Assembly (NCBI GenBank): GCA_963839695.1
Contig: CAWIVW010000010.1
Location: forward strand, 3,647-67,646
Direction of reading: 5' to 3'
Origin: an uncultured Acidimicrobiia bacterium
GTDB lineage: Bacteria > Actinomycetota > Acidimicrobiia > Acidimicrobiales > Ilumatobacteraceae
DNA length: 64,000 bases
Shown: positions 2,082-20,437 of the stretch, piece after piece
Numbering within the stretch: the stretch's first letter is position 1
Layout of the letters: each line of letters starts with the position of its first letter
Translations under genes and position numbers: made by a program
Notes under the pieces: model-generated
Told to the model about the DNA's origin: nothing
The model's database searches: none
Seen by the model: only the letters and a program-made list of their open reading frames with translations

Positions 2082-2798
2082 TCAATCGGGCTCGGGCGGG
2101 AGCCGGTCGAGTTGGTCGGCGGCGATCAGCCCGGAGTCGATGGCGTGGTCGACGAGGCGGCGGCGGCGGTCGGTGGCGAGCTGGTCGATCGACCCGCGGA
2201 GTCCGCCGACGCCGAGCTTGGCGAACCGGTTGCAGAGGTTGTCGAGCTTGCGGTTGAACTTGGTGATCGACCAGCCGAGCCGGCGGGCCACCGCCCGATT
2301 GGCGGGCAGGTCCTGCTTCATGTGCGGGTCGCGCAGCGTCGGTTCGGCGAGGGCGAGGAGCAACAGCCGCTGCTCGTCGGTGAGGACGATGTCGCCCAGG
2401 GCGATCGTGTCGGTGAACTCGTCGTCCCAGAGCTCCTCGCCCTCGTCGTCTCCTCCTCGTCCTCCCGGTCGGGCACGCGCAGGGTCAGCTCGTAGTCGGT
2501 GATGCCGGCGCGGAAGCGGACGATCGAGTTGGGGAACGACAGCGCGATCTCGCTGCCCGGCGCGAGCACGACGTTGGAGCGCGAGTCGGCGTCGGCGATC
2601 TGGATCGAGATGGAGCTGCCCTCGTTGCGTCAACCACCACTGCTCGTCCCGCGCCCAGAGCCGCCCGAGCACGCGGTGGAGGTGCCGGTTGTCGTCGATG
2701 CGCAGGTCGCCGGCCCGGCCGAACGTCAGCTCGTCGCTCGTCTCGATCGCCCTGACCTCGCCGCAGTACTCGACCCGGAGCCGGAGGTCGTCCTTCAC
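2082..2798 (-). CDS. FHA-like domain plus C-terminal HTH protein, frameshifted (2 single-base indels)
   Basis: GTG at 2798 overlaps the upstream stop (GTGA). VKDDLRLRVEYCGEVRAIETSDELTFGRAGDLRIDDNRHLHRVLGRLWARDEQWWL continues in another frame as NEGSSISIQIADADSRSNVVLAPGSEIALSFPNSIVRFRAGITDYELTLRV. An acidic linker follows, then LTDEQRLLLLALAEP...NRAVARRLGWSITKFNRKLDNLCNRFAKLG (HTH-like). Frame breaks are near 2625 and 2450. Confidence 0.6.
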   Translation of the reverse strand: MKDDLRLRVEYCGEVRAIETSDELTFGRAGDLRIDDNRHLHRVLGRLWARDEQWWLTQRGQLHLDPDRRRRLALQRRARAGQRDRAVVPQLDRPLPRRHHRLRADPARARPGGRGGDDEGEELWDDEFTDTIALGDIVLTDEQRLLLLALAEPTLRDPHMKQDLPANRAVARRLGWSITKFNRKLDNLCNRFAKLGVGGLRGSIDQLATDRRRRLVDHAIDSGLIAADQLDRLPPEPD

Positions 2799-4143
2799 CC
2801 GGCCTCCCTGTCGACGACGGTGAAGGAGCGCGAACCGAAGTACACCGTCGCCCCGGGCTCGAGCAGCTGCGCCCGACCGGCCTCGAGCGCGGTGACCTGG
2901 CCGCCGGGATGGGGCACCACGAACGTGCCGTTGGTGGACCCGCAGTCGGCGACGAGGACGTCCCAGCCTTGGTAGCGGATCTCCAGGTGGCTCCGCGAGA
3001 CCTTGTCGCCGATGACCTTGACTCGGCGTAGGCCGGCTCGTTCCGGATGGGTGTCGCGGTCGGGGTTGCGCCCGATGAGCAGCTCGTGATCGAGCTCCAC
3101 GATCGTGCCGTCGTCGAGCTCGAGGTGCCCGAGACTCGGCCGCGGCACGTGGACCACCGTCGCCGTGCCGGGCGTGAGGAACTGGCCGCACACCGCGCAC
3201 GAGGCGACGACCGGAGGATTGGCGTGACCGTTGGGGCAGAGCTTGGCGTCGACGAGCGCCCCGCGCCCGTCGTCGCCGGCGCCCGCGCCTCCGAGCCCGA
3301 ATCACGTCGCCGAGCAGCTCGCCCGGCGCGGGCGGGGGCAGGGTGATCTCGGCGTCGTGGAACTCGTCGCCGTCTCCGTCCTCGTCTTCGACCTCGTTCT
3401 CGTCCTTGTCGCCGGCCGCCTCGGCGGCGCGGCGCCGCCGGGGCGGCGTCGGCCGACGACTCGGCGTCGTAGACCGGCCGGCCGTCGGCGCCGGTCGCGG
3501 CGGCCTGGATCGCGGCGAGCGCGGCGGCCGGGTCGTCGGCTGAGACTGACGGCGCGGGAGGCGGCACCGGCGCGACCTCGGCGACGACGGCGTCGGCCTC
3601 CGCGGTTCGGCCTCCGCCGGGACGGGCGGTCGGGGGATGCTCTCGGTGGCGTCGGTGACCTTGTCGGCGGGTGCCGGCGCGTGTCTCGACCGCGGCGCCA
3701 CGATCGACGGGCGCGGCCAGTTCGAGCCGGAAGCCTCCGGCGAGCGCGACGCCCGACGTGAGGTCGGTGGCGGCGTCGACGGGCGGATCGCTCGCCCCCG
3801 ACTCGATCCGCGCGTCGGACTCGACCGCCATGGAGTGCTCGACCCACGTTCGCGATCCGGCACCGGACAGCATCGGCAGGCTCGGCTGGTCGGTCTCGAC
3901 CGCCGCCGCCCCGAACGCCATCACCCGGACCGTCGGGGTCCAGCCCACGCCGACGAAGGGCGCGACGTCGAACCCGGCGGCCACCGTCGCCGACGCCAAC
4001 GCCTGCAGCTCGCCGCCCTCCGGACTGCTCATGAACGCGTCGAGGAGGCGCTCGTCCCGCTCGGGCAGATAGAGCAACGCGTCGCGCCGACGCGCGACGT
4101 GCCCGCTTCCGGGGGCCAGGCGCAGCGTCGCGCGAAGCTCCAT
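2795..4143 (-). CDS. FHA-domain protein with a zinc-ribbon-like CPNGH...CAVCG motif and a long N-terminal domain, frameshifted
   Basis: ATG at 4143 lies 2 nt after the PP2C stop. The N-terminus MELRATLRLAPGSGH... is in one frame. The acidic/Pro middle (DKDENEVEDEDGDGDEFHDAEITLPPPAPGELLGDV) is in a second frame. The C-terminus LCPNGHANPPVVASCAVCGQF...LLIGRNPD...VSRSHLEIRYQGWDVLVADCGSTNGTFV is a canonical FHA in a third frame. There are at least 2 frame breaks (~3640, ~3300). Confidence 0.65.
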
Positions 4144-4144
4144 C

Positions 4145-4957
4145 TCAACTGACTCCCAGCCGGAGCACGACGGCGGTCGCGTTGTCGCGACCGCCGACCT
4201 GATCGGCCTGCTCGACGAGACGATCGGCGGCGCCTTGGCAGCTCGGCAGCGACAACGTCGCCCGGATCTGGTCGTCGTCGAGCTGGCGGTGGACTCCGTC
4301 GGTGCACAGCAGGAGGCGATCGCCGGCGCGCACCGGGATCGCCAGCACGTCGACCCGGAGCGCCTCGAGCTCGAGGCCGATGAAGGAGGTGAGCCCGTGC
4401 AAGGCCACGCCGCGCTCACGGTACTCGCCGATGTCGAGACCGGCCGCGAGGAGTTCCGCCCGCACGTTGTGGTCGTGCGTCAGCAGGTCCAGGCGCGGTC
4501 GGTCGTCGAGGTTGGCGAGGCGGTAGGCGCGGGAGTCGCCGAGATGGATCAACGTGATCAGCGGACCGCCGACGACCGCGACGAGGAGCGTCGTCCCGAG
4601 GCGATCGACGCCGCGCTCCCGGCCGGCGTGGATGACATCGGAGTTGACGGATTCGACGATCCGGCGCCAGTCGGGGTGTTCGCCCGCCTCGTCGAGCCGG
4701 GCGAGGAACCGGTCGATCGCGGTGCGGGCGGCGAGGGCGCCCCCGCCTCGGCCACCCATGCCGTCGGCGACGACGAACGTGTTGGCGCGCTGTCCCCACG
4801 CGTCCTCGTTGACCCGTCGCCGGACGCCCGCCGAACTCGCGCTCCCCCACTCCAACACCGTGAGGGGAGAAGCGATCAGGGTGGCGGTGAGATCGGCGAT
4901 CACCCCCGAGTTCTCGGTGGGGGTGGTGTCGTCGTCGTCGTCGAGTCGCAGGGACAT
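4145..4957 (-). CDS. PP2C-family Ser/Thr protein phosphatase (intact)
   Basis: ATG at 4957. RRVNEDAW, FVVADGMGGRGGG, DRLLLCTDGV and GGRDNATAVVLRL are PPM/PP2C motifs. Confidence 0.85.
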   Translation of the reverse strand: MSLRLDDDDDTTPTENSGVIADLTATLIASPLTVLEWGSASSAGVRRRVNEDAWGQRANTFVVADGMGGRGGGALAARTAIDRFLARLDEAGEHPDWRRIVESVNSDVIHAGRERGVDRLGTTLLVAVVGGPLITLIHLGDSRAYRLANLDDRPRLDLLTHDHNVRAELLAAGLDIGEYRERGVALHGLTSFIGLELEALRVDVLAIPVRAGDRLLLCTDGVHRQLDDDQIRATLSLPSCQGAADRLVEQADQVGGRDNATAVVLRLGVS

Positions 4958-4965
4958 GGCCGGTG

Positions 4966-5655
4966 TCACGGCGTCGTGGTGGCCGGGGCCGCGGTCGTCG
5001 GCACGGAGGTCGGCACCGCGGTCGGCACCGCGGAGTCGGCGGTGACCGGGGCGTTCGCCCCGACCGTGGTCGTCGCCGGGTCGTCCTCGCCGCCGTCGCC
5101 GGCGAGCAAGAACACCACGGCGGCCGCGGCCAGACCGAGCGCGACGCCACCGGCGATGATGGCGGGCAGAAGTCGGGACCGGGATGCGGCCGCTTCTTCC
5201 CGATCGGGTCGTTGCGCCGTCGGGAGACGGCCGGGTGGTCGCCATGGTTGGCGCGGCGAGCCGGCGGCCGCCGGAGCAGGATTCGGCCCCGGCGGCGGGG
5301 TCGGGGGGATCGGCGGGACGGGTGGCTCGGGCGGCGGAGGGGTTGGGGGGACCGGCGGCACGGGTGGTTCGGGTGGCGGCGGGGTTGGGGGGACCGGCGG
5401 GACGGGTGGCTCGGGTGGCGGCGGGGTTGGGGGGACCGGCGGCACGGGTGGCTCGGGTGGCGGCGGGGTTGGGGGGACCGGCGGGACGGGTGGCTCCGGG
5501 GTGGACGTCCCGGTGGCGGCCCGGATCGCGGCGATCAGGTCGTCACCCGCCTCGACCGTGACGTCGTCGTCATCGGACTCGTCGGAATCGCCCCAGTGGA
5601 GCTCCCAGATCCGTTCGTCGTCAGCGGTGGAAGCGTCGTCCTGTCGTTCGGTCAT
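4966..5655 (-). CDS. Acidic N-terminus / Pro-rich tandem-repeat / single-TM protein (229 aa)
   Basis: ORF 4966..5655. It contains about 4.8 copies of PPTPPPPEPPVPPV, then the TM segment LLPAIIAGGVALGLAAAAVVFLLAG and a Thr/Pro/Ala tail. It lies in operon orientation between the transglutaminase-like and PP2C genes. Confidence 0.55.
   Translation of the reverse strand: MTERQDDASTADDERIWELHWGDSDESDDDDVTVEAGDDLIAAIRAATGTSTPEPPVPPVPPTPPPPEPPVPPVPPTPPPPEPPVPPVPPTPPPPEPPVPPVPPTPPPPEPPVPPIPPTPPPGPNPAPAAAGSPRQPWRPPGRLPTAQRPDREEAAASRSRLLPAIIAGGVALGLAAAAVVFLLAGDGGEDDPATTTVGANAPVTADSAVPTAVPTSVPTTAAPATTTP
5297..5500. repeat. 42-bp tandem repeat (~4.8 copies) encoding the PPTPPPPEPPVPPV units
   Basis: The unit ggggttggggggaccggcgg[c/g]acgggtgg[c/t]tcgggtggcggc is repeated head-to-tail. 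Confidence 0.85.
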
Positions 5656-5676
5656 GGCGCGACCACCGCTCCATCC

Positions 5677-8033
5677 TCACGACCGCGAGCCCGCCTTGGC
5701 TTCGTCGCGCAGCAGCGGGCGGGGGTCGAGCCGCATCCGCATCCGCTGGGCGGCGTTCCGGCGGCGGCGGAGCTCGACGCTGACCCGGTCGCTGTACTGC
5801 CACGCCCGATCGACGTGCGGCGGGAGCGGGCGGCTGGGCGGCGAACGCCGCCCGGTCGACCTCGTCGGCGAGGTGGTGCAGCTCCGGCTCGAGTCCGGTG
5901 ACCGCAGCACCGCCGGCATACATCCCGACCGTCTCGTGGGGCGTGGTGCCGGCGGCTCTCGGCAGCCCTGACTCCGTGCAGCGGTCGATGGCCTCCGCCC
6001 AAGCCCCGGCGACGCGCCCGCCCGTCGTGCCGTGGAACCGCCGGCGCCGGCGGCGCAGCGCCTTCCATCCCACGACCACGGCGGCGAAGAGGGCGAACAG
6101 CAGGAGCGGGATGCCACCGGCGCCGATCGCGACCCACGTCGCGATGCCCGGCCCGCCGCCGCGCTCGAACTCGTGGGAGATCGGCTCGAACTTCTCCTCG
6201 TTCTCGACCTCGTCGTCCTCCTGGCGAGGTGGCTCCACCTCCGGTGGCGGTGGTGGCGGCGGCGGCGGGTTCGGGACGGCGATCTGCTCGGTCGTGCTGC
6301 CCTGGGTCTCGGGGTCCGGGGTGCGGGAACGGTCCGGGCTGACGTCGACCGGCACCCACCCGAGCTCGCCGGCGTCGAGCTCGACCCACGCCGAGATGTC
6401 CCCCGCCAGTCACCTCGGCCCGCCCGTTCTGCCACCGCTCGGCCGGGATCTTGTAGCCGACGACGACCCGCGCGGGCAGGCTGGCCGCCCGCGCCATCAC
6501 CCCGGCGGCGGCGGCGTACTGCTCCTCGTAGCCGACGATCCGGGTCGGATCCTCCAGCATCAGGTTGATGCGCCCGTACGAGTGGCCCGGCTGGGTGGCC
6601 TCCGGAGACGTCGTAGAAGCCCTCGTTGACGAACTTGTCCCGGATCGCGGCCATCATCTGCCAACGGGACTCCTGGCCCTGGGTGAGGTCCCCGGCGAGG
6701 TTCTCGACCTGGGGCGGGAGCAGCTTCAGTTCCTCGCTGCGATCGACCAGGGTGATCGTGGCCGCTTCGAGCTGGGCCTCGCTGACCTCCGGCACCACCT
6801 CCGAGGTCACGCGGTAGGAGAACTCGTTCGGCACTCCCCCCGGCAGGGCGACGGTGCCGGTGCCCATGTTCATCCGCGGGTCGGGATCGTCGTCGAACGT
6901 CGAGCCGGGTCGGCGTCCCGGCGGTGGGGAGGAAGAACCCACCGAGATCGTTGATCTCGACCCGGTGCTCGACGGTGCGCGCACCCTCGGGCAGCTCGTC
7001 GTCGAGCTCGGGGAGCTGCGTGTCGACGGGTACGAACTCGGCGGCGTCGGGGTGCCGGTCGGGATCGGCGACCGTCCACACCACGCCGTCGTAGTCCGTG
7101 AGCACGGCAACCGGCCACCGTTCGACCTCCGTGTCGCCCTCGACGGTGAACACGACGTCTTCCTTGCGCTCGTCCTTGAGCGAGGCCTTGAGCTGCACCA
7201 GCGGGCTCGGCACGGCGAGGGGATCGAACGGCGGGACTTGATACCGGCGCAGGTCGAAGCGCTCGTGGGCCTCGGCCAGCGGCAGGCGAGGCCCGACCAT
7301 CGGAGCGGCCACGACGGCTCCCACGACCAGCACGGCCCCGAGCATCAACCGGCGCCGGTTCGTCGACACCGCGGCGGCGTCGAACTCGTCGCCGACCGAG
7401 CCCGCCACGATCCGCCTGGCGAGACGCTGGGAGGCCGTGATCAACGCCAGGGTGCCGGCGAGGATGCCGGCGCCTTGGAGGAGGGCCAGCCAGCGCTCCT
7501 CGATGGTGAACAGCAGGCTCAACGCGAGGGCGAGGAGGGGACCGATCGCGGGCAGCCCGGGCCGGCGGCTGTGGCGGGCGATCTCGCCGCCGATCGCGGC
7601 GGCCAGCCAGGCGACGGTGAACGGCAGCGCCCGCAGCTCGACGGTGATGTCCGCCGGTGGGGCCGCCGAGAGGAGATCCGCCCATCCGTCGATCAGCCCG
7701 CGGGCGAAGTCGCCGTAGGCGCCGGGCAGTCGGGATGCCGCCGACCGCCACGCCGCCGAGCACCATGAAGGCACCGGCGGAGAGGGCGACGCTCTCGCCG
7801 AGCAGCAGCCGGCGAGAGCGGGCGAACAGGACGACCGCCGACGCCCCGGCGGTGCCGATCGCGGCGGCGCTGACGAAGCTCCAGCCCGACAGGGTGCTGC
7901 GGAAGCCGATCGCCGCGACCATCGACATCGCCGCGACGATGGCGACGGCGATCGCGACGTACGGCCCGATCGCGCGGCGAGGTCGGGCGTCGGGCTCGAC
8001 GGGTGACGAGGTCACGGGATCACCTGGTTCCAC
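5677..8033 (-). CDS. Transglutaminase-like multi-TM membrane protein (typical MoxR/DUF58 operon partner), frameshifted (~5 indels)
   Basis: GTG at 8033. The N-terminal TM bundle (IGPYVAIAVAIVAAMSMVAAIG...) and later fragments chain across frames near 7740, 6920, 6590, 6400 and 5830. The core reads RIVGYEEQYAAAAGVMARAASLPARVVVGYK ... DISAWVELDAGELGWVPVDVSPD, followed by poly-Pro and a TM segment (ATWVAIGAGGIPLLLFALFAAVVVGW). Confidence 0.7.
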
Positions 8034-9178
8034 GCGGCCTGGAACTGCTCGAGCGTGTCGACGTCGATCACCTTGCTGCCCGGGAGGTATCCGGGGATGC
8101 GGTCACCCTTCGGCCACACCCGGACGAGGATCACCCGGGCGGAACGGCGGGCGACCGTCGACATCGTGAGGAACCGATCCGTCGGCACGTTTCCCGTGAT
8201 CACGACGAGGGCCGACGTTCCGGCCTCACCGCGGAGGGCGTGGAGCGCGGCATCGGCGATGTCGGTGCCGGCGGCTTCCTCGGCCAGGGTGAGCCGGTCG
8301 AGCAGGTCGTTGCGCGCCGCCGGTCGGTTCTGCCCCATCAACGCCTCGCGGTCGAGCCACACCGCCACCGGCTGTTCGGCCATCAATGACGAGACGCCGA
8401 GCGACGCGGCGATCTCGATCGCGGTGTCGAAGCCGGCCGGATCGATGTACGACTCCACGTTGGTGTCGACCACCGCGGTGACGTTGGGGCGCCGGTTGTC
8501 GACGTAGTGGCGCACCATCAGCGTGCCGGTGCGCGCCGTCGACATCCAGTGGATGTGCCGGTGGTCGTCGCCGAGCTCGTACTCGCGCAGGGCGTGGAAG
8601 GCGACGTCGCCGGCCGGCGAGGCGTCCGACGTCGGGCCTTCGAGGTCCTTGGCGTAGCCGACGGGGAGCGGGCGCAAGGCGACGACCCGGGGGTGGACCC
8701 ACAAGGTCTGCGTCCCGGTCTGGACGATCTCGCGCCGCATCAGGTTGACGAGGTCGCTCTTCACGATCAGCGCCGGCCCGACGGTGACGATGCCGCGCCG
8801 GGCCGTGGGCAGCGGGTACACCGCTTCGGTGGCTCGGCCGGCGCCGAGTGGGGGGATGTCGAGGCGCAGCGGGCGCCCGCCCACGTGCTCCTCGATCGTG
8901 CGCGAGGCCACCGGCGTGCGGCGGGGGTTGGTGACGCGCATGACGGCGATGGCGCGGTCGCCGACCGTGACCCGCTCCGGGTCGAGGATCCGCTCGACGT
9001 CGAGGGTGAGGCGACCGACGACGAACGGGATCGCGGCGAGGAGCACGATCAGGCAGCCGGCGGCGACGACCATCAGCTCGACCCAACCGAGCTGCCACCC
9101 GGCGACGTACGCGGCGACTCCGAGCACGAGGACGGTCCACCCGCTCGCCGTCAAAGGGAGTCGCCGCAGCAGCTTCAA
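8012..9178 (-). CDS. DUF58 (vWA-like) domain protein, intact
   Basis: 388-aa ORF with a TTG start. It has two N-terminal TM segments and DVAFHALREYELGDDHRHIHWMSTARTGTLMVRHY, the DUF58 signature. It sits immediately downstream of MoxR. Confidence 0.85.
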   Translation of the reverse strand: MKLLRRLPLTASGWTVLVLGVAAYVAGWQLGWVELMVVAAGCLIVLLAAIPFVVGRLTLDVERILDPERVTVGDRAIAVMRVTNPRRTPVASRTIEEHVGGRPLRLDIPPLGAGRATEAVYPLPTARRGIVTVGPALIVKSDLVNLMRREIVQTGTQTLWVHPRVVALRPLPVGYAKDLEGPTSDASPAGDVAFHALREYELGDDHRHIHWMSTARTGTLMVRHYVDNRRPNVTAVVDTNVESYIDPAGFDTAIEIAASLGVSSLMAEQPVAVWLDREALMGQNRPAARNDLLDRLTLAEEAAGTDIADAALHALRGEAGTSALVVITGNVPTDRFLTMSTVARRSARVILVRVWPKGDRIPGYLPGSKVIDVDTLEQFQAAWNQVIP

Positions 9179-9188
9179 GACTTCGACC

Positions 9189-10163
9189 TCAGCTCGCTCT
9201 CATCGCGGCGGGGAGGTCGACGCGGTCGATGACCTGCTCGACGAGCTCGCCGGCGTCGACCTTGCCGAGCTCGGCCTCGGGGGTGAGCAGCATGCGATGG
9301 CCCATCACCGCCGGGGCGACGATGCGCACGTCGTCGGCGGTGACGAACGGGCGGCCCTGGGCGGCGGCGAGCGCCCGGGACGTGCGGATCATGCCGATCG
9401 CGCCGCGGGTCGAGACGCCCAGCCGCAGCTCGGGCAGGGTGCGGGTGGCGGCGCACAGGCGGACGACGTAGCTGCGGATCGAGTCCTCGACGTGGACGTG
9501 CTCGGCGACCTCGATCATGTTGCGCACGTCGGACGTCGACATCACCGGCGACAGCCCTTCCGGCCGCAGGCCGTCGGCGAGCATGCGCAGCACGTCGACC
9601 TCGTGGTCGTGGTCCGGGTAGCCGAGCGTCGTGCGCATCAGGAAGCGGTCGAGCTGCGCTTCGGGCAGCCGGTACGTGCCCTCCTGCTCGACCGGGTTCT
9701 GGGTGGCGAGGACCACGAACGGGCGGGGCACGTCGTAGCCGACGCCGTCGACCGTGACGTGACGCTCCTCCATCACCTCGAGCAGCGCCGCCTGCGTCTT
9801 CGGGGAGGCCCGGTTGATCTCGTCGGCGAGGACGACGTTGGCGAACACCGCGCCCCGGCGGAAGTCGAACGTCCCCTGGGACTGGTTGTAGACGAGCCCG
9901 CCAGTGACGTCCGACGGCAGCAGGTCCGGGGTGAACTGGATCCGGCTCCAGGTGCCCTTCACCGAGTGGGCGATCGCCTTCGCCAGCGACGTCTTGCCGG
10001 TGCCCGGGACGTCGTCGACGAGCAGGTGCCCCTCGCTGAACAGGCAGACCAGGGCGAGGGCGATCTGGTCGCGCTTGCCCTTGATGACCTGTTCGACGTT
10101 CTCGAGCAAGGCGTTGAACCAGTGGCTGAACCACTCGGCCTGTTGGTCGGTTGCGGGTTGCAT
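9189..10163 (-). CDS. moxR: MoxR-family AAA+ ATPase, intact
   Basis: 324 aa. Walker A is GTGKTS, Walker B is VVLADEINRASPKTQAALLEVMEE, and LATQNPVEQEGTYRLPEAQLDRF is a MoxR hallmark. Confidence 0.92.
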   Translation of the reverse strand: MQPATDQQAEWFSHWFNALLENVEQVIKGKRDQIALALVCLFSEGHLLVDDVPGTGKTSLAKAIAHSVKGTWSRIQFTPDLLPSDVTGGLVYNQSQGTFDFRRGAVFANVVLADEINRASPKTQAALLEVMEERHVTVDGVGYDVPRPFVVLATQNPVEQEGTYRLPEAQLDRFLMRTTLGYPDHDHEVDVLRMLADGLRPEGLSPVMSTSDVRNMIEVAEHVHVEDSIRSYVVRLCAATRTLPELRLGVSTRGAIGMIRTSRALAAAQGRPFVTADDVRIVAPAVMGHRMLLTPEAELGKVDAGELVEQVIDRVDLPAAMRAS

Positions 10164-10187
10164 GGTGCTCTCTCTCGGGGTTGATGT

Positions 10188-13100
10188 TCAGCTGACCGAA
10201 GGTGCGGTGTTCGCTCTCGTGGCCTCCCGGCTCGAGCCGCACCCAGAAGACGTCGTTGGGGTAACCGAAGTAGCAGACGTTGCCGGCGGAGAGGTCGCCG
10301 TTGCCGTTGGCGGTGGCGTTGTTCGCACCGCCCACCGCTCCCCAGTCGTTGCTGTAGCACTGCACCGAGTACGTGCGTCCGGGGGTGAGGCCACTGCCGC
10401 TCACGTTGATCCACCGGCAGTACGACGAACCGCAGTTGGGCTGCCCCTGGGCGGACGCGCCCTTGCTCCAGTTCACGTGCACCGGCGCCCGCGGCGTGGC
10501 GTACTGGAACCCGCTCCACGCGCCGCAGCCGACTGCGTTGCAGGCCTGGACCCGGATCCCGTACTGCTGGCCGTTGTTCAGCCCGCCGAACACGTAGGAG
10601 CGGTCGCCTGACGACGGGTCGCCGCCGGGATCGATGTCGAGGTGATAGCTCGGTGATCGGCTTGCCGTTCTCGGGCGGCGCCGACCACGAGGCGGAGATC
10701 GTCGCGTTGCCGGCGTTCAGGCTCAGCCCGCCCACCTGACCCGGTTCACCCGGGGTGCGGGCCCCGACGGAGTTGGCCGGCGCGCCCGGACCGACGTCGT
10801 TGACGGCGCGGACCTGGAACGTGTAGCTGGTGCTGTTGGCGAGTCCGCCCCGGGTCGTCGACAGGACGTTGCCGACGTTCTCCCAGCCGCCGCCGTTGAC
10901 GGAGAGCTCGTAGCGGACGATCGGGCTGCCGTTGTCGTTCGCCGCAGCCCATTCGACGTAGACCCGCCCGACGTCCGGCACCGCTCTCGTGATCGTCGTC
11001 GGGAACGGCGGCCCGGCCGGGCGTGACCGCGTTCGACGGGGCGCTGGCCGGGCTGTTGCCCTCCTCGTTGGTGGCGACGACGGTGAACGTGTACGGCGTG
11101 CCGTTGGTCAGGCCGGCGAACGTCGCCGACGTGACGTTGCCGCCGACCGTCATCGTCGCGCCCTGGCTGTTGGTGATCGTGTAGCCGCTGATCGCGCAGC
11201 CCTGCGGGTTGGGCGCGGTCCACGACACGGTGGCCGACTGGTCGCCGCGGACGGCCTGCACGGCCGGGACCTGATCGGGATACGGTGCACGGGATCACGG
11301 GGACCGAGGCGGCCGACGCTGGGCTCCACCCGCCCCGGTTGCGGGCCCTGACGGTGAAGCTCTGCGGCTCGCCGTTGGGCAGGTTCGACCACTGCAGCGA
11401 CGTCGCCGTCGTGAGGTTGGTGGCGCCGGTGCTCTGGATCTGCACCTCGTACTCGATGATCGAGTCACCGCCGTTGTCCGGCGGGGTCCAGGACACGAGG
11501 ATCGTCCGGTCGCCGCGCTGACCCACGGGCGCGGCGGGCGTCGAGGGCGCACGCAACGGGTGCTCGGGCGCGGAGGGGGAGCTCCACTGGCCCTCGCCCT
11601 TGGCGTTCACGGCCCGGACGAGGAACGTGTACTCGGTGCCGTTCTGCAGCCCCGTCCAGGTGAAGGACGTGCCGGCCCCGACCCGTTGGACGGCCGAGGC
11701 GCCACCGCCGATCTGGAGGTCGTAGTTGGTGATCGCGCTGCCTTCGTTCGCCGGCGGGTTCCACGACACGATGAGCGCGCTGTCGGCGAACTGGACCGTC
11801 GGCGCGGCCGGGCGACCGGGTTCGATGTCGGGGGTGACGACCGGTGACGGTCCGCTCCACGGGCCCCAACCGGCGACGTTGTGCGCCCGCACGCTGAACT
11901 GCACGCCCTCGCCGTTGGTGAGTCCCGTCCACGTGAACCCGGTCGTGTTGCCGATGGACTGGCCGCCGCCCTCGCCGATGCGGATCTCGTAGTCGTCGAT
12001 CGGCGCGCCGTTGGCGGCCGGGGCGGCCCAGTTGACCGTCGCCGTGGCGTTGCCGGCGACCGCCGTCGGCGAGCCAGGGGCCGAGGGACGACCGATGACG
12101 TTGACCGTGACCTGGGCCTCCGCTTCCCGCTGGGCGATGTTCGAGCCGTCGCGGATCCGGTACTGGAACGTCGTCGTCCCGAAGAAGTCGCTGCTCGGGC
12201 TGAACGTGACCCGGCGGCCGTCGGTGGTGGCGGTGCCGCCGTTCGACGCGCCCACCGACGTCACCGTGAGCCCTTGGGCGAGCGGGTCGATGTCGTTGGC
12301 CAGCACCGCCACCGTCACCGGCGTCGCCTGGTTCGTGGTGGCCGAGTCGGGTCGGGCCTGCGGCGGCGGCGCGTCCGGGCGCGGCGACGGTGAGGGTCAC
12401 GGTTGCCGTCGCCGATTCGCCGCCGGAGTCGGTGACGGTGTACTGGAACGAGTCGGTGCGGCCCGCCTGGTCGATGGCCGCGGTGGCCCGCACCGTCGCC
12501 CCGTCGGGGCGCAGCTGCACGACCCCGTCCGACGCCGGCGTCGTCGTGAACTGGAAGGTCTCGCCGGGGTCGGGATCCTTGACCAGGGCGGCGAGGTCGA
12601 CGTTCGTGGCCCGACCGGCCTGGACCTCGAGGTTGGCGTCGGCGGCCGTCGGCGGGCGGTTGCTCGGCGGGAGCACGTTCACGGTGACCGAGCCGGCGAC
12701 GATGTGCCCCTTCTGGTCGTCGGCGGTGTAGGAGAACGTCGCCCGGCCGGCGAACCGGTCGTCGGGGTTGAACCGCACGGTCAGCTCGTTCGGGCCGTTC
12801 ACCGACGTGCGGGCGGTGCCACCGCGCTGGCCGTCGCAGCAGACGAAGTACAGCGGGTCGCCGTCCGGATCGGACGCCTGGGCGGCGAGGTCGATGGCGA
12901 CGGTCTCGTTGGCCGGCGTCTCGACCTCGAGCGGCTCGACCGACGGCGCCCGGTTGTCGACGACGAGCACGGCGAGCTCGGAGGTGTCGCTGAGGCCGGC
13001 GGGGTCGGTGACCGTGTAGCGGTGCCGGCTGGACCGGTCGCCGGCGGTGAAGGTCAGCGTTCCGCCGTCGAGCTGCGCCAGCGCCGGGTCGCTGGACGAG

Positions 13101-16100
13101 ACCGTCAGCTCGGCCGGGTTGCCGTCGGGGTCGAGGTCGTTGGCGAGCAGGTCGATCTCCACCGTCTGCCCCGGTCCGACCGGCCCGATCCGGTCGTCGA
13201 CGGCGATCGGCGCGACCGGATCGGTCGACGGGATGACGATCACCTCGACCGTCGCCGACGCCGTGCCGCCCCGGCCGTCGTCGATCGAGTAGTTGAAGGC
13301 GAGCTCGGCCGGTCCGCCGTCGGCAGTGCCGGTGCGGTCGGGCGGCGTGAACTCCACCGCGCCGCCGCCCTCGACGACCGCGGTCTCGCCGCTCGACGGG
13401 GTACCGACCTGGGTGACCAGGATCCGGTCGCCGTCGGGGTCGGAGTCGTTGTCGAGGACGTCGAGGACGAGCGGGGCGCTGCCGGCGACGACCTCGATGG
13501 TGTCGTCGAACGCCTCGGGAGCACGGTTCTGGGCGGCGAGCGGCATCACCCCGACGAGCACCTCGCCGATCGCGATCTCACCGTTGGCGTCGACGAGGGC
13601 GTAGGAGAAGCGGTCGGTGCCGCTGAACGTCTCGCTGGGGGTGTAGACGATCGCGCCGTTGTCGACGCGGGCGGTCCCGCCGCCTGGTTGGGAGCGGATG
13701 TTCTGGACGGCGATGATGTCGCCGTCGGGATCGCTGTCGTTGGCGACCACCTCGACCGCGATCGGAACACCACTGCGGGTGCGGGCGAGATCGGTGCGGG
13801 CGATCGGTGGTCGGTTGACCTCGTCGGCGGGCACGATGCGCACCTCGATGAAGGCGCTCGCCTGGTTGCCCCCCTCGTCGGCGACGGTGTAGCTGAGCGT
13901 GAAGCTGGAGATCACGTCGGGCCCGACGTCGATGTCGACGGTCTGGCCGTTGAGCCCGGGCGCGCTCTCGGCCGCCGGGTTGGTGGTGACCGACGCGACC
14001 TCGAGCGCGCCGCCCTCCGGGTCGTAGTCGTTCGTCAGCACCGGCACCGCGACTCGGCCGCCGGCGCGGACCTCGACGACGTCGGTGCGGGCGACCGGCG
14101 GCTGGTCGATCACCTTGCTGTCGGTGACGGCGACGACCACGACCGCGGTGACGGGGTCGGACGTGCCGTCGGAGATCTGGTAGCGGAAGGTCGGCCGCTT
14201 GGGCGCGTTGGGGGCGACGGTGACCAGGTACCCGACCCCGTCGACCTCCTTCACGGTGAGGCCGGTCGTCCGTGGTGTGACCGACGAGTGCGACGATGTC
14301 GCCGTCGGGGTCGCCGTCGTTGGCGAGCACGTAGACGAGGCGGGACCCGCCGGCGGGGATGACCACGTCGTCGCGGACCGCCGTCGGGGGCCGGTTCGAG
14401 CCGGGCTCGGTGACCTCGACGCGGATCTGGGCGACGTCGGACTCCTCGCCGTCGGTCGCCGAGTAGTTGAACGCGTAGGTGCCCGCGGCGGTCGGGTTGA
14501 AGAAGAACTCGCCGTCGGGCGTGAGCGACAGGTCGAGCGACTCGGCGGTCTGGTTCTCGGGACGGACGAGCGTCGGGAGTTGGGCGATGAAGAGCGGGTC
14601 GTTGTCGGGATCGGTGTCGTTGTGCAGGACGTCGAGGCGCACCGGCTTGCCGACGACCGTGACGCCGGCGTCGTTGCGGGCGTCGGGCTCGTTGTTGGCG
14701 TCCTTCAGGCGGACCGACACGACGACCTTGCCCTCAGCGGTTGCGGCGAAGTCGTCGCTCACGACATAGGTCAGCTCGATCCGGTCCGACGGCTGTTGAC
14801 GTCCGGCGTGAACACCACACGGCCCGAGGGATCGGACACGATCGTGCCGGCGGTGGTGGCCGGGTCGGACAGCGCGATCGACTCGAGGACGAGCGCGTCA
14901 CCGTCGGGATCGACGTCGTTGGCGAGCACGTCGAACGTCGTCGAGCGCCCCTTGCGGGTCGAGGCGATGTCGGCGTGCGCCTCCGGCGGGCGGTTGCCCG
15001 TGCCGTTGGACGCCGTGACCTCGACGGTGACGACGGCGGAGGCGCTCTCGCCGCGCCCGTCGCTGATCGTGTAGCCGAACGTGACGACGCCGGTGTACCC
15101 GGCGGCGGGCGAGACCTGTACGCCGCGTGCGTCGGGGTTGATCGCGATCACGGCATCGCCGCCGGTCGGCTCGATCTCGGTGACGAGCAACACGTCGCCG
15201 TTCGGGTCGGTGTCGTTGGCGAGCACGTCGACGTCGATCGGGCGGTCGACGCGGGTCTGGGTCTGGTCGTCGCGGGCGACAGGAGGCCGGTTCGGGCCTT
15301 CCTCGTCGATCTCGTCCGACTCGACGATCTCGGCGTTCGGGTCGTCGGGGTTGATCTCCTCGATCACCTCGCCGCCCTCGTCCTCGGTGTTGTTCTCGTC
15401 CGACTCGTCGGCGGACTGGGCCAGGATCGCACCCCAGTCCTCGACGCGGTCGAGGCGTCGCTGCGGGCTGGTGACCCAGGCCGCGCCGGTGTCGACGTCG
15501 TTGACCCACACCCAGCCGTTGACCAGCCGGAGGCGGAGCTCGGAGCCGGCGCCTTCGAGCGGCGTGGACTGGACCTGCTGGTCACCACACCACTGGGCGA
15601 ACGTCGCCGGCGCCGTCGACACGGCGAACAGGCAGCCCCCGAAGACGATCGGGGCGACCGGCGAACCGCCGGCGAGCTGGCCGATCTGGGTGCTCTCGAC
15701 GCGCTCGCCTTCGCCGACGGTGAGGGGGATCGCGAAGATGCGGCCGTCGGCGGTGGCGGCGACGACGTGGTCCGCCTGCCCGCCGGGCTGCTGCAGGATC
15801 AAGGGAGCCGGCCGGCCGTCGGGATCGGTGACGCCGGTGTCGAGCGGCGTGACCCGGTCGGGGGTGGCCACGAAGACGTCGCCGTCGGGATCGGCGAGGA
15901 CGGCGGTGTCCTCGCCGAGGAAGGTGAGCGAGACGGCGTCGTCGGTGAGGTTGAGCTTGGGGCTGGTCTCGGTCGAGCCGTCGGGGCGCAGGAAGATGAC
16001 GTTGTCGGCGCCCTGGTCGACGATCACGGCGTGGCCGTCGGGCGTCGCCGCGGAGAGCGCGGCGCCTTCGCCGCGCAGGGTCGGCTCGACCTCGTCGAGG

Positions 16101-16550
16101 CTCTTCACCGAGGCGAGGGCGTCACGGCTCAGCTTCCACACGCCCATCGAGTCCCGTTTGACGATGAGCGCCCCACCGTCGACGGCGTGGACGGTGACGT
16201 CGGGGTCGACCTGGATCTTCTCGAGCACGGGTCTGGGTCCGGTCGTCGACCAGCCGCAGGGTGCCGGCCGTGCGGTCGTGCACGACGATGACCCCTTTCG
16301 CCTGGTCGATGTCGTAGTCGGACCCCGGCTCGGAGGTGCTGACGGCCGCGGTGACCTCGCCGACGACGCGGTTCACGTGGCCGACGTAGCCGACGTCCCG
16401 CTTGAGCAGCCAGGCGCCGCCGTCGTTGGTGTTGGCCTCGGAGCGCTCGCGCCCTTCCGCCTGCAGGGCGGTGACGACGACGGCGCCGATGACCAGCCCG
16501 AGCACGACGAGCACGCTGCCGGCGATCCCGCGCCGGGCTCGCTTCGTCAT
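10188..16550 (-). CDS. Giant (~2,100 aa) membrane-anchored surface protein: N-terminal TM, beta-rich domain, ~11 cadherin-like repeats, 6 FN3 domains and a Cys-containing C-terminal domain. Frameshifted (~8 indels).
   Basis: ATG at 16550 (MTKRARRGIAGSVLVVLGLVIGAVVV). Fragments chain across frames near 16240, 14790, 14270, 12370, 11280, 10990 and 10640. Recurrent ~100-aa units carry NRPP-x-A-x-DD ... V-x-VLANDxDPDGD. The FN3 units look like ATVSWTAP...YTFTVVATN. The final stop is unclear: the TGA at 10188 needs one more indel, otherwise the frame runs through moxR. Confidence 0.8.
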
Positions 16551-16862
16551 GTTGGGTCCTCGACGGCTCGCTTCAACCTTCTGCTCCCTGACACCTTGTT
16601 CCGACGATCCGACCTGCCGTTCGGTTCGCGGGGACGCGACACGGGTCGCGAACGGAGCAGCTGGTCGTGTTCCATCCGCCCTTCGATTTGAGGCCTTCCA
16701 CGGCAGGTGGGAGGCCGAATCGTTCGTAGGCTACTCCTCGGTACGGGGCGATGCGACGGGGACCGCTCCCCTCCCGCGACCCTCGTGCTGCCGCCTCGAC
16801 CTGCGCCTTCCACCCGAGCCGCCCACCGCCTCCCAACCGTGCCCCGTAGCCCTGACCCCACC

Positions 16863-18415
16863 GTGCCCAACGTCCAGATCGACGGGTTCGACCAGCTCGA
16901 GCTCGTCGGCAAGGGCGGGTTCAGCTACGTCTTCAGCGCGCGCCAGAAGGACTTCAACCGGCGGGTCGCGCTCAAGGTGCTGACGTTCGGGCTCGTCGAC
17001 GAGCGCGAGCGGCGGAGCTTCGAGCGCGAGTGCCGGGCGATGGGCCTCGTGTCCCAGCACCCGCACATCGTCACCGTGTTCAACGCCGCGTTCACGGCCA
17101 CCAAGCAGCCGGTGATCGTGATGGAGCTGTACAGCGGCGGGACGATGGGCGACCGCCAGAAGCGGGAGGGTCGGCTCCCCGTGGCCGTCGTCCTCGATAC
17201 CGGGGTCAAGATCGCCGGCGCCCTGCAGACCGCCCACGACCGCGGATTGCTGCACCGCGACATCAAGCCGCAGAACCTGTTCATCTCCGAGTTCGGGGAA
17301 CCGGCGCTCGGCGACTTCGGGATCTCCACGCTCGACGACGAGCGGTCGATCTCCGGCGGCGGCGGGCTCACCGTCCACTACGCCCCGCCGGAGGTGCTGG
17401 AGGGGGCCAAGGCCACGGCGATCTCCGACGTGTACTCGTTCGCGGCCACGCTCTACACCCTGCTCGAGGGGGCCCGGCCGTTCGCCCCCACCCGTGGGTC
17501 GCGGCAGCCGATCGCCGAGCTGGCCCGGCGGATCATGCTCGAGGCGCCGCCGCGGATGAGGCGCGACGACGCGCCGCGAGGGCTGAGCGAGCTGCTCGCC
17601 CGGACGATGAGCAAGTCACCGGACGAGCGCCCGGCGTCGGCGGCGGCGTTCGGCCGGGAGTTGCAGCGGATCCAGGGCGAGCTCGGCCTGCCGGTGACGG
17701 CGCTCCCCCTCGTCGCCGCCGCGCCACCGACGTCCGCCACTCCCGCCCCGCCGGCCTCCGAGCAGGGCCAGGCGGACGCACCGCGTGCCGCCCCTGCCCC
17801 CGCCTCCGGCGCCGGCCGCTGAGGTACCGGCGGCTCAGCCGGCCGAGGGCGGGGATGTCCCCGTCGAGATCCGGCCGGTCGGCGCGGACGGTGACGCCGA
17901 CGTGGACGGCCACACGATCACGGTCGGGCGGCCGGTGGTGCCGCCGGACGACGGCCACGACACCCGGACCGGAGCCGCGGTGAGCGAGGCGAGCACTCGG
18001 CGGATCGTGATCGGCACCGCGGCCGGCGTCATCTGCCTGCTCGCCGTGGCGGCGTCGTTGTTCTTCTTCGGCCGGGGTGGCGGTGGGAGTACCGAGACGA
18101 CGCTGTCCGGTCCGACGACCACCCAGGACCTCGGGTTTCCGCCGCCGACGACCGCAGGGGGTGACGGTGGTCGCGCGGGGCCGGAGACAGCGAAGCAGGT
18201 CATGGTCGCCTGGCAGGCCGTCGGCGAGCCGGACAGCGGCATCGCGCTACCAGGTCCGCCAGCAGAACCCGAGCGGACAGGTGGTCAACACCGACGACCT
18301 CTCGGTGACGATCGACGGCGTCAGCCGCGCCGAGCGACCGTGCTTCGTCGTCATCGCGATCACCGAGGCCGGCCAGACCTCCAACGAGAGCGACCTCGCC
18401 TGCCTCCTCCCGTGA
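16863..18415 (+). CDS. Receptor-type Ser/Thr protein kinase (kinase domain, linker, TM, small FN3-like ectodomain), frameshifted (2 indels)
   Basis: GTG at 16863. Kinase motifs present: GKGGFSYVF, ALKV, HRDIKPQNLF, DFGIS, YAPPE. After breaks near 17790 and 18240 it continues as RRIVIGTAAGVICLLAVAASLFFF (TM), then YQVRQQNPSGQVVNTDDLSVTIDGVSRAERPCFVVIAITEAGQTSNESDLACLLP*. Confidence 0.8.
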
Positions 18416-18421
18416 CCGCCC

Positions 18422-18468
18422 GTTCTTGCATCTAGGTCGCGCGCCCTGCGCGTGACCTAACTTAGAAC
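18422..18468. terminator. Long imperfect hairpin between convergent genes (candidate bidirectional terminator) that carries the TTGCATCT core motif
   Basis: GTTCTTGCATCTAGGTCGCGCG-CCCTG-CGCGTGACCTAACTTAGAAC. The core stem TAGGTCGCGCG/CGCGTGACCTA pairs 10 of 11. It lies 7 nt after the kinase stop and overlaps the stop of the minus-strand gene. Confidence 0.5.
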
Positions 18469-18720
18469 GTTTCTACGTTGAGCACCTCGAAGATCTCTGG
18501 CTCACCGGCGAGTTGAATTCCTGCTGCTGCCAGCTTCGGTTGCAGCGTCTCGCCGAACGCCTGAAGCTGCTCCTGCGATTCCCAGATTTCGCTGACGCGG
18601 ACGTTCTGCTCGTCACCAAAGGCGACGTGGATCAGGCATCCCGCTGCAGGCCAATCACCGGGATCTGCTCGAGCGCAGCGTGAACGGAGTCGTACTGCCC
18701 GCTATCGGTTCGAACACCAT
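18462..18720 (-). CDS. Small ABM/EthD-like protein (~85 aa), frameshifted (2 indels)
   Basis: MVFEPIAG / QYDSVHAALEQI / DPGDWPAAGCLIHVAFGDEQNVRVSEIWESQEQLQAFGETLQPKLAAAGIQLAGEPEIFEVLNVETF* is read across three frames. The pattern P-x-G-x-L-x-H-x-A...V-x-E-x-WES is typical of this small family (from memory). Confidence 0.45.
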
Positions 18721-19117
18721 CCCATTTGCTTGCCCTGCGCGGTTGCTCACCGCCGCTGCTCCCGCCGGCCCCGCCACCGTGATCGAGTACGCGCTGATGA
18801 TGTAGCGGTGGCCGCCGCGCCACCGCCGTAGGTGCGGCCCACGGAGTACCGCCCGTTCGCCGGACGCAATGTCCCCATCAATGCGATGGCCAGCCCTGCC
18901 GATGAGCCGCCGAGGTCCCCGAGCGTCACGTTGCCGGGCTGAGACGCACATCAGGGCACCTCGCTAGTCATGACAACCTGATGACAGCCCGTCCGCCTCG
19001 TATACCATTCCGCAATTGAGGGACTTGAAGTGCCACACTAAGGGTGAAGCACGCACATGCGGGCAAGACGTCGACTCGGGCGACGAGACGTCGATCCTGT
19101 AAAGAAAGGCGGAATCG

Positions 19118-19879: not shown

Positions 19880-19953
19880 CCTCGCGACGGCGCCGCAACC
19901 CCCCCGAACGCACCGATTGCGCACGGAGTTTGACTCCACTCGGCGAGGCTTGT

Positions 19954-19980
19954 GTTGGCGCCGGTCCGTCCGGCGCCAAC
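19954..19980 (+). terminator. Perfect hairpin downstream of the LPXTG gene
   Basis: GTTGGCGCCGG-TCCGT-CCGGCGCCAAC, an 11-bp stem ~75 nt after the stop. Confidence 0.5.
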
Positions 19981-20386
19981 GCGACCGCTCGACGACGGCG
20001 GCAACGTTTCGGGAGTCGGCGCTGGACGAGACGGTCGAGGCAGGGCCGGGTCGAGCGCGACGTTCGCCGCGACCGCGACGGACTAGGCCGGGGTGATTGA
20101 CGAAGTGCGTCGACGGTACCCGATGTGCTCAGCTCACCACGCCCGCAGCCGCTGCCCCGGAGTCGTCGGAGATCGTCCATCGTCACCGCGAAATGCGAGT
20201 CGGCACGTGCTGGTCGACTCGAACACGGAGCAGACTGATGATGACGTGACCCGGGACATCGAAGGAGGTCCACCTTCGGTGCATCGCCTCGAACCCCCAG
20301 GTCGCCCCACCCGACCAGAGCTACCGCGACGTGGCGGTCCTCGTCGGTATCTACGTGTTCGTCAATCGATGTTGGCTGCGGACGCG

Positions 20387-20414
20387 GAGAGGAGGGGCCG
20401 AAGCCCCTCCTCTC
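20387..20414 (-). terminator. Perfect hairpin downstream of the minus-strand surface-protein gene
   Basis: GAGAGGAGGGGC-CGAA-GCCCCTCCTCTC, a 12-bp stem 24 nt beyond the stop at 20438. Confidence 0.55.
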
Positions 20415-20437
20415 ATGAACTCACCGAATGGAGTGCA

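Follow-up and report, generated by a model that had tools for sequence, protein, structure and literature searches.

The nine genes and their reading frames

We consider here a block of nine genes at positions 2082-18415 of a 64,000-nucleotide (nt) stretch of DNA from an uncultured Acidimicrobiia bacterium (assembly GCA_963839695.1, contig CAWIVW010000010.1); the whole stretch is called the window, and all coordinates refer to it. Eight of the genes are packed on the minus strand, running from 16550 to 2082, and the ninth, encoding a receptor Ser/Thr kinase, is divergent and occupies approximately 16863-18415 on the plus strand. A sequence-only reading of the same letters had described eight such genes and a divergent kinase, and both are present. 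Names such as EsrG-like or Tgm-like in the following list denote likeness to components of two actinobacterial gene clusters, Esr (epibiont sensing and response) and PFNA.

16863..18415, plus strand: divergent receptor Ser/Thr kinase (EsrE/Pkb2-like); Pkinase E=1.9e-39 on 16863-17822
16551..16862, no strand: divergent intergenic region between the kinase and sensor genes, 234-312 nt by kinase start; presumed promoters
10188..16550, minus strand: giant surface protein of ~2,120 amino acids (aa), an EsrA/FN3-like sensor; ~8 frame breaks
~15299-16460, minus strand: beta-propeller domain of the sensor; N-domain profile matches
~12320-15290, minus strand: Big_9/cadherin-like repeats of the sensor; Pfam
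~10640-12320, minus strand: FN3 repeats of the sensor; Pfam
10188 to ~10640, minus strand: Cys-rich C-terminal domain of the sensor, ~150 aa; no known family
9189..10163, minus strand: MoxR-family AAA+ ATPase, intact; AAA_3 E=6.7e-61, AAA_lid_2, bpMoxR
8012..9178, minus strand: DUF58 (vWA-like) protein, intact; DUF58 E=5.6e-13
5677..8033, minus strand: polytopic TgpA-like membrane protein with a transglutaminase (TGase)-like domain (EsrD/Tgm-like); five frame breaks; Pfam pieces and intact orthologue
4966..5655, minus strand: small acidic Pro-rich single-pass membrane protein; open reading frame (ORF) and translation; no known domain
4145..4957, minus strand: PP2C Ser/Thr phosphatase (EsrF/PrpC-like), intact; PP2C_2 E=7.7e-13
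2795..4143, minus strand: EsrG-like output protein; frame breaks in the linker
3709-4143, minus strand: predicted pseudo-PP2C N-domain of the EsrG-like protein; AlphaFold2 confidence (pLDDT) 96.9
2795 to ~3250, minus strand: zinc ribbon and canonical FHA of the EsrG-like protein; FHA E=1.7e-9 at 2798-3193
2082..2798, minus strand: last gene, 238 aa after repair; compensating frameshifts near 2627 and 2450

The giant gene ends with TGA at 10190-10188 (read only once one inserted base is removed), and the MoxR ATG at 10163 follows after 24 nt. The MoxR and DUF58 genes are 10 nt apart, and the DUF58 gene overlaps the TGase-like gene by 22 nt (start at 8033) or 4 nt (GTG start at 8015). The next distances are 21 nt from the TGase-like gene to the small gene, 8 nt from the small gene to PP2C if the ATG at 4957 is used (a GTGA overlap with the GTG at 4969), and 1 nt from PP2C to the EsrG-like gene (stop 4147-4145, ATG 4143-4141); the EsrG-like and last genes overlap in GTGA at 2795-2798. 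The gaps of 25 nt or less, or overlaps, claimed in the sequence-only reading are thus confirmed: besides the five gaps there are two overlaps and the GTGA. It placed the kinase 312 nt upstream, which is correct for a start at 16863, but the start is ambiguous (GTG at 16785, 16839 or 16863) and the distance is 234-312 nt. Its domain names were all recovered by Pfam in the window's own translations, with matches to Big_9, Cadherin_4, Cadherin_5, fn3, AAA_3, DUF58, TgpA_N, Transglut_core, DUF4129, PP2C_2, FHA and Pkinase.

Scans of the block for promoters and terminators gave no signal above that of shuffled sequences, and no match to Rfam was found within the block. The sigma-70-type consensus was not found in 16551-16862, which is uninformative because the phylum is high-GC. 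The G+C content is ~72% over the nine-gene block and 59-67% in its flanks. The best protein matches of the window are metagenomic Acidimicrobiia, mostly Ilumatobacteraceae; an exact look-up of the DUF58 protein returned no identical record.

Many of the frames are broken: there are ~20 or more frame-breaking insertions or deletions (indels) in the 16 kb block. Compared with the intact 84%-identical relative L001 (GCA_040507575.1; relatives are cited by the handles of their loci), the giant gene is split by frame into 8 segments and the TGase-like gene into 6; breaks number at least 2 in the kinase gene and at least 1 in the zinc-ribbon/FHA gene, and the last gene has 2 shifts that compensate each other. 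The DNA alignment to another relative, L004, covers exactly 2082-18415 with 91.2% identity and contains 57 gaps, 44 of which are not multiples of three and 30 of which are single-base. The sequence-only reading had already advised repairing the frames first. Examples are found at 2450, 2627, 5818, 6409, 6603, 6898, 7727 and 10192, and further at 10651, 11019, 11286, 12380, 14264, 14789 and 16229. Single-base indels occur about once per 0.8 kb and are mostly an extra G or C, partly outside homopolymers.

We believe that the breaks are most likely errors of sequence or assembly and not decay, and they resemble uncorrected long-read assembly error. This is because the out-of-frame stretch 2450-2626 of the last gene has 100% aa identity to an intact metagenomic protein (P0229), because frame changes are found also outside the block (e.g., in 30-36 kb and at ~39.8 kb of the window), because the Transpeptidase match of the pbpA-like ORF ends at profile position 142 of 299, and because the relatives are intact. 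A decaying pseudogene cluster, in which the frameshifts would be real and the system non-functional in this organism, could be proposed from the density of indels and their uneven distribution, with none in the MoxR, DUF58 and PP2C genes, each of ~1 kb and frame-intact. However, the aligned segments contain no premature in-frame stops and no large deletions, out-of-frame segments are up to 100% identical to intact homologues, frame changes are window-wide with a conserved pbpA-like ORF also affected, and the genes are intact in close relatives. We therefore consider decay improbable. The nearest relatives are metagenome-assembled genomes. Since the frames of the window are broken, the protein-level work was done on intact orthologues.

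Recurrence of the block and its proteins

A scan with a DUF58 profile, one genome per species, gave 79 loci, which were taken with 10-kb flanks; profiles built from the L001 proteins were searched against all six-frame ORFs of these loci. The following counts concern the 57 Acidimicrobiia-type loci, each denominator being the number of loci where the component was assessable. Iterated models of the cadherin, FN3 and C-terminal repeats were promiscuous for Ig-like domains and were used for no claim.

MoxR is present in 55/55 loci, the sensor N-domain in 41/41, the TGase-like gene in 57/57, the kinase in 40/43, PP2C in 46/51, the EsrG-like N-domain in 44/48, FHA in 44/49, and the last gene in 44-45/48. 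The same nine genes occur in L001 (DUF58 84% identical) and in L002 (51%), with different flanking genes. The block recurs in dozens of species-level genomes, and judging by these comparisons the recurrence is more than chance. The proposal that the genes form one functional unit gains support from these counts. Nor is the neighbourhood limited to close relatives, since it is widespread in the 57 loci, which include the cultured Ilumatobacter nonamiensis YM16-303 (L053, full block) and Salsipaludibacter albus of the class Nitriliruptoria (L027, block without the last gene).

Several variants of the order were observed. In L037, L041 and L048, which lack both PP2C and an EsrG-like gene, the genes run MoxR, DUF58, TGase-like, last gene, sensor; in L066 the sensor is flanked by two EsrG-like copies and the last gene; in L043 and L045 the kinase immediately precedes MoxR, and L045 also has an FHA gene ahead of the kinase.

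The giant protein is built of adhesin-type domains. Matches to Big_9, Cadherin_4, Cadherin_5 and fn3 lie in window pieces between 10191 and 16228, and the intact orthologue contains 11 Big_9 and 6 fn3 stretches (Pfam). The 390-aa N-domain has no Pfam match above threshold; its 40-sequence profile, searched against the PDB, finds beta-propellers (Pizza6, 1.3e-5; BamB, 9e-5; the PknD sensor, 1.8e-3), and PQQ_2 matched in 6/40 members. The topology prediction gives a long hydrophobic helix at the N-terminus, a signal or an anchor, and no LPXTG motif was found in the C-terminal translation.

The mean pairwise identity among close relatives is 0.90 for MoxR, 0.83 for DUF58, and 0.79 for both the kinase domain and the last gene. 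For the extracellular parts it is 0.60 (propeller), 0.56 (kinase ectodomain), 0.55 (FN3 region) and 0.36 (the C-terminal 150 residues of the sensor, the fastest-diverging part of the whole block). Because the extracellular parts evolve fastest, the kinase ectodomain included, we presume that they have a role in ligand recognition; the hypervariable C-terminal domain of the sensor may be its distal tip. The profile of the kinase FN3 ectodomain also matches FN3 repeats in the sensors of L076, L077, L017 and L049 (E ~1e-11 to 1e-13 in L076 and L077), which may indicate that the stalk of the sensor and the ectodomain of the kinase have a domain type in common and could pair.

The MoxR protein scores 36.9 bits against the Pfam model bpMoxR, whose cut-off is 27. 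In the DUF58 protein, two N-terminal helices form a membrane hairpin, and the domain after it is cytoplasmic (transmembrane (TM) prediction, orthologue); the protein is 84-97% identical to its Acidimicrobiia homologues and 30-40% identical to those of Bifidobacterium, Nostocoides and Isoptericola. We take DUF58 to have a vWA-like fold. A link between DUF58 and vWA in InterPro is noted in PMC12067865.

The TgpA-like protein consists of the TgpA_N TM region, an extracytoplasmic TGase-like core, a Pro-rich linker, a TM helix and cytoplasmic DUF4129; the Pfam pieces (TgpA_N, Transglut_core, DUF4129) are located between 5621 and 7774. The sequence-only reading called it transglutaminase-like. The domain is present, but in the window the catalytic Cys is replaced by Glu and the His by Ser, while the third triad column keeps its Asp. 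In the catalytic columns (window 6404-6602 and 6200-6409) the motifs are IVGYEEQYA and DISAWVEL, as compared with GYCEQFA and HAHAWPEV in L078. The catalytic Cys is found in none of the sensor-linked homologues, i.e., in 0/47 of the Acidimicrobiia type and 0/18 from Actinomycetes (65 total, including the Tgm of Bifidobacterium), where it is replaced by Glu, Ala, Gly, Ser or Asp. Two plain MoxR-DUF58-TgpA loci, L078 and L080, retain both Cys and His. Judged by these residues, the TGase-like domain is probably not an enzyme.

The small membrane protein has no match in Pfam or NCBIfam and is the least conserved member of the block: its model matched only about half of the Acidimicrobiia-type loci. 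The gene contains a 42-nt tandem repeat in 4.9 copies at 5291-5496 (93% matches), which encodes a 14-residue Pro-rich unit; its copy number probably varies among strains.

The kinase has a cytoplasmic kinase domain with intact HRD and DFG motifs, one TM helix (from the L001 orthologue) and a single extracellular FN3 domain, whose profile matches fibronectin FN3 with E=1.3e-11; its frame breaks are near 17783-17885 and 18151-18286. The PP2C protein, whose PP2C_2 match falls within 4145-5245, looks active by its metal-binding motifs (ADGMGG, TDGV and RDN are present), and its orthologue matches Stp1_PP2C_phos with 6e-37, which is under that model's curated cut-off.

The EsrG-like protein has the order predicted pseudo-PP2C domain, Pro/Ala-rich disordered linker, zinc ribbon, FHA. 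The first 145 residues, searched against 1.84 billion representatives, matched 183 proteins, and all 7 that were inspected have the N-domain, the Pro/Ala-rich linker, the zinc ribbon and FHA. For the predicted structure of the N-domain, the top Foldseek matches in the PDB are PP2C phosphatases (PppA at 4e-4, tPphA, PstP and the RssB pseudo-phosphatase); searches against PDB sequences, with a single sequence and with a profile, gave nothing significant. Since the domain is short (145 aa, ~60% of the PP2C length) and its alignments lack the DGxGG metal motif, we consider it a putative pseudophosphatase. The zinc ribbon, reported in the sequence-only reading for one of the FHA proteins, is real: its pattern C-x3-H...C-x2-C is invariant in the alignment of EsrG-like proteins. 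The apparent lack of the EsrG-like N-domain in the Actinomycetes loci was rejected as evidence, because the FHA gene sits at the edge of the DNA examined in those loci.

The last gene encodes a divergent N-terminal FHA-fold domain, an acidic linker and a C-terminal five-helix domain, the latter a candidate helix-turn-helix (HTH). No Pfam family was found at threshold, and nothing significant was found among PDB sequences by single-sequence and profile searches. The AlphaFold2 model of P0229, which equals the repaired window protein, has pLDDT 76.7. The top 20 Foldseek matches of its N-domain are all FHA, the best being Rv1747 FHA-1 (E=1.3e-5, target TM-score 0.70); ArnA, APLF, OdhI and GarA are among the others. 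Gly27-Arg28, His41 and Asn58 of the FHA signature are invariant, and Pfam FHA matched 1/37 members (E=0.0012). The second FHA reader of the sequence-only reading is thus supported by structure matching, although Pfam remains below threshold. The family has 811 members in the protein collection, and a second, alignment-based search added only five more distant proteins. It is found in 0/18 Actinomycetes loci within the DNA examined. The minimal variants L037, L041 and L048 retain the last gene without PP2C and the EsrG-like gene, which suggests that the last gene is itself an output.

WXG100 genes were found in the flanks of 15/50 related loci, directly downstream of the last gene or beside the kinase; usually they are on the strand of the last gene, directly downstream and often paired. 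They follow the last gene in L042 (8219-10379), L051 (7626-11924), L025 (6811-11765), L046, L054, L017, L020, L021, L024 and L056. After them comes a conserved 500-600-aa protein that belongs to no Pfam family, and in L051 and L025 this is followed by a further FHA-domain protein running off the contig, which could be the start of an FHA-EccC fusion.

Relation to PFNA and Esr

The authors of the sequence-only reading were not aware of an experimental description of this combination. Such descriptions exist, and the gene set is that of the PFNA operon (PMC8430577, PMC6803598) and of Esr (PMC13622651); what differs from the publications is the Acidimicrobiia host, the extra candidate output gene and the probably dead transglutaminase. 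We believe that the block represents the PFNA/Esr module of actinobacteria in an Acidimicrobiia (Ilumatobacteraceae-like) variant, which would combine surface sensing with a Ser/Thr phospho-relay, and we estimate the probability of this reading at about 0.6.

The PFNA operon of Bifidobacterium is pkb2-fn3-aaa-atp-duf58-tgm, to which prpC, a hypothetical gene and fha are added in some species (Nezametdinova, Danilenko et al.; PMC8430577, PMC6803598). Its genes were shown to form an operon in B. longum GT15, and in B. longum the MoxR ATPase it encodes is a substrate of Pkb2 (PMC8430577). In Bifidobacterium (6 species), Nostocoides, Isoptericola, Phycicoccus and others we found kinase, propeller sensor, MoxR, DUF58 and TGase-like genes in the same order, and the Actinomycetes loci have full-length profile matches to the sensor N-domain (E=1e-36 to 1e-81) and to the TGase-like protein (E=1e-170 to 1e-205). 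For PFNA itself, the proteins are homologous (DUF58 30-35% identical, TGase-like full-length, sensor N-domain E=1e-36 to 1e-40), the five core genes and prpC have homologues in the block, the order sensor, MoxR, DUF58, TGase-like, PP2C is the same, the kinase ectodomain is FN3-like in both, and the Bifidobacterium Tgm also lacks the catalytic Cys. The differences are that the kinase gene opens the PFNA operon, on the strand of the other genes, whereas that of the window is divergent; that an N-terminal beta-propeller is unmentioned in PMC6803598; and that the window sensor has cadherin/Big_9 repeats besides FN3.

PFNA was described as specific to bifidobacteria and read as a means of host/cytokine communication (PMC8430577, PMC6803598); binding of TNF-alpha by its FN3 protein was reported (PMC8430577, PMC10688814). 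Homology to the Bifidobacterium clusters makes it natural to ask whether the block in the window is such a host-communication operon, encoding an adhesin or cytokine-binding protein. We find this very improbable: the nearest relatives are all metagenomic, none with a host-associated label, and classes without an animal association have the block too, so an animal-specific role cannot be ancestral.

Esr was described in Schaalia odontolytica and other Actinomycetes (Wang et al., bioRxiv preprint, Sept 2026; PMC13622651). According to this source, the secreted EsrA carries a beta-propeller at its N-terminus, followed by 14 Ig-like repeats, and lacks an LPXTG motif; the cluster also has a MoxR and a vWA protein, the kinase EsrE and the phosphatase EsrF; EsrD is transglutaminase-like, and its loss frees EsrA into the supernatant; in EsrG a disordered region bearing the phospho-Thr connects an N-terminal pseudophosphatase to a C-terminal FHA, and variants with a zinc finger are known; and esx genes adjoin 40% of the systems (PMC13622651). 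All seven component types are common to Esr and the block. The window sensor is built as EsrA (N-terminal hydrophobic helix, beta-propeller, long Ig-like repeats, no LPXTG); the MoxR (AAA_3) and DUF58 genes, the latter vWA-like by outside knowledge, are adjacent; TgpA_N, Transglut_core and DUF4129 match the architecture of EsrD, with Cys and His replaced; the kinase and PP2C are both in the cluster; and the EsrG-like protein has the predicted pseudophosphatase, the linker, the zinc ribbon and FHA. The esx/WXG100 linkage, frequent and not obligatory, is shared at the level of the related loci.

The differences from Esr are as follows. The host classes of the block are Acidimicrobiia and Nitriliruptoria; it has two extra genes, one for the FHA-fold plus helical protein and one for the small Pro-rich membrane protein; its kinase is divergent from the operon; its fastest-evolving part is the C-terminal domain of the sensor and not the propeller; and its TGase-like domain is without catalytic Cys and His.

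The genetics of Esr bears on the direction of control. EsrG is Thr-phosphorylated upon epibiont infection, only with EsrA present, and when EsrA is deleted the FHA protein is no longer phosphorylated on Thr and no transcriptional response follows (PMC13622651). The latter is why we consider the giant protein an input and not a matured product. The sequence-only reading supposed the opposite, with the relay controlling the giant protein; Esr genetics and the divergence pattern point inward, and the direction that it supposed is probably wrong. In its model the kinase/PP2C pair and the two FHA readers would govern a MoxR-driven step in which a giant adhesin is matured, exported or anchored. This has its grounds, as the giant protein is made of adhesin-type domains and B. 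longum Pkb2 phosphorylates the PFNA MoxR ATPase (PMC8430577). We nevertheless consider it rather unlikely: the Esr deletion places the surface protein upstream of the kinase, the rapid evolution of the extracellular parts is what ligand recognition predicts, and output proteins with a zinc ribbon and a possible HTH point to gene regulation. That MoxR ATPases are chaperone-like is established and speaks for maturation.

For the PFNA/Esr variant, we presume the following order of events, mostly by transfer from Schaalia odontolytica. The giant protein would be the sensor at the cell surface, held there by the TgpA-like protein, which is more likely a non-catalytic scaffold than a cross-linking enzyme; the retention would then be non-covalent, which is our own suggestion. 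A ligand or contact would be relayed via MoxR and DUF58 remodelling to the kinase, which would phosphorylate Thr in the disordered linker of the EsrG-like protein; FHA domains would read the phospho-Thr mark and PP2C would reset it. It is also our own suggestion that the FHA-plus-helical protein of the last gene may serve in Acidimicrobiia as a phospho-dependent DNA-binding output, and that its targets likely include the WXG100 genes directly downstream in ~30% of related loci.

A fuller version can be put forward only tentatively, and we doubt that all of its parts hold together: an Acidimicrobiia subtype of Esr where the FHA and HTH protein of the last gene reads the mark and switches on downstream WXG100/Esx genes, where the TGase is a dead scaffold family-wide (in PFNA and Esr) with non-covalent retention, and where the C-terminal domain of the sensor is the ligand tip.

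The stimulus is a separate question. MoxR-vWA-centric ternary conflict systems were described by Kaur, Burroughs, Iyer and Aravind (2020, eLife; PMC7159879); according to the Esr authors, that survey did not detect Esr clusters (PMC13622651). The block resembles these systems in having a MoxR and vWA-type pair coupled to a variable sensing component, and FHA and kinase domains are among their signalling parts; it differs in having no VMAP, iSTAND or FtsH third component and in that its propeller is on a giant extracellular protein. Thus the same architecture could respond to another stimulus (phage, predatory or competing cells, envelope stress) and would then be a general sensor of conflict or stress of the MoxR-vWA kind defined by Kaur et al. 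2020. The MoxR protein is above the cut-off of bpMoxR, the model of MoxR-vWA-beta-propeller ternary systems; the flanks vary between genomes and here have lower GC and an inserted 6.6 kb, as in variable islands; and a literature search found no link between Patescibacteria/Saccharibacteria and Acidimicrobiia as hosts. We regard this as a possible but doubtful reading, considering that no effector or toxin domain was found in any of the nine proteins (Pfam, NCBIfam), that PADLOC gave only generic kinase and AAA similarity on the block with no specific defence-system match, and that the sole experimental data for this architecture concern Saccharibacteria (PMC13622651).

The plain MoxR-DUF58-TgpA operons should also be mentioned. 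They are reportedly exemplified by TgpA of Pseudomonas aeruginosa, and the MoxR "proper" subfamily is said to go back to Snider and Houry (2006). The loci L078 and L080 share with the block the same-order trio of MoxR, DUF58 and TgpA_N/Transglut_core; they differ in keeping Cys and His and in having no sensor, kinase, PP2C or FHA in the DNA examined.

Several points weigh against the assignment to PFNA/Esr and its extension to a regulatory output. Esr is described as "effectively confined" to the class Actinomycetes (PMC13622651). Orthology to the Schaalia system is proposed from architecture and from homology to other Actinomycetales clusters, and co-transcription of the block is a prediction. 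The FHA fold of the last gene and the pseudo-PP2C nature of the EsrG-like N-domain both come from predicted structures alone, and hhalign gave ~1% probability for each, against the FHA and PP2C alignments of the cluster, respectively. In the last gene the Ser position of the FHA signature is Arg, and the HTH output named in the sequence-only reading is weakly supported, since its five helices are predicted and the HTH_24 and HTH_36 signals (8/37 and 6/37 members) are sub-threshold. The 64-kb window contains no WXG100 match. The N-terminal helix of the sensor may be an uncleaved anchor, which would place the propeller close to the membrane and make the variable C-terminal domain the outermost part, an arrangement that differs from the one drawn for Esr. 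Finally, genuine frameshifts would mean that this genome has no working copy of the system.

For the window alone the result is modest: a recognisable system of a described type in a sequence that needs frame repair. More generally, the PFNA "host-communication" operon and the epibiont-defence pathway Esr seem to represent a single ancient module of actinobacteria, which extends past the class Actinomycetes to Acidimicrobiia and Nitriliruptoria. The missing Cys in all sensor-linked homologues examined questions both the PFNA reading of the TGase-like protein (a cysteine protease) and the Esr reading (a cross-linking enzyme). The FHA-plus-helical protein, often with WXG100 genes after it, is a candidate output regulator; the Esr authors name the way in which EsrG phosphorylation changes transcription as the missing step (PMC13622651), and the reader encoded by the last gene would, if our proposal is true, supply it. 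Acidimicrobiia, which are widespread in environmental metagenomes, would in that case be regular targets of epibionts or similar surface attackers. Ilumatobacter nonamiensis YM16-303 is a tractable cultured carrier.

Surroundings in the window

The homology to L004 ends exactly at both edges of the nine-gene block. Next to it, 18416-25051 (~6.6 kb) is missing at this position in L004, and the G+C content over 18-22 kb is 63-67%. The features here are:

19118-19879, plus strand: protein with a signal peptide, an 18-nt repeat in 7.9 copies (ETTLPP) and an LPVTG sorting signal
20496-21959, minus strand: DUF11/DUF7507 protein
22736-24025, plus strand: Abhydrolase_8 protein

A canonical actinobacterial cell-wall signalling cluster is found on the minus strand at 37694-45278:

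45196-45278, plus strand: tRNA
44421-45227, minus strand: FhaA (FhaA_N and FHA)
43905-44417, minus strand: FhaB-like FHA
42432-43895, minus strand: PstP-like PP2C
41024-42682, minus strand: RodA/FtsW
39824-40987, minus strand: PbpA
37694-39820, minus strand: PknB-like kinase

Because this cluster is present besides the nine-gene block, the window contains two separate sets of kinase, PP2C and double FHA.

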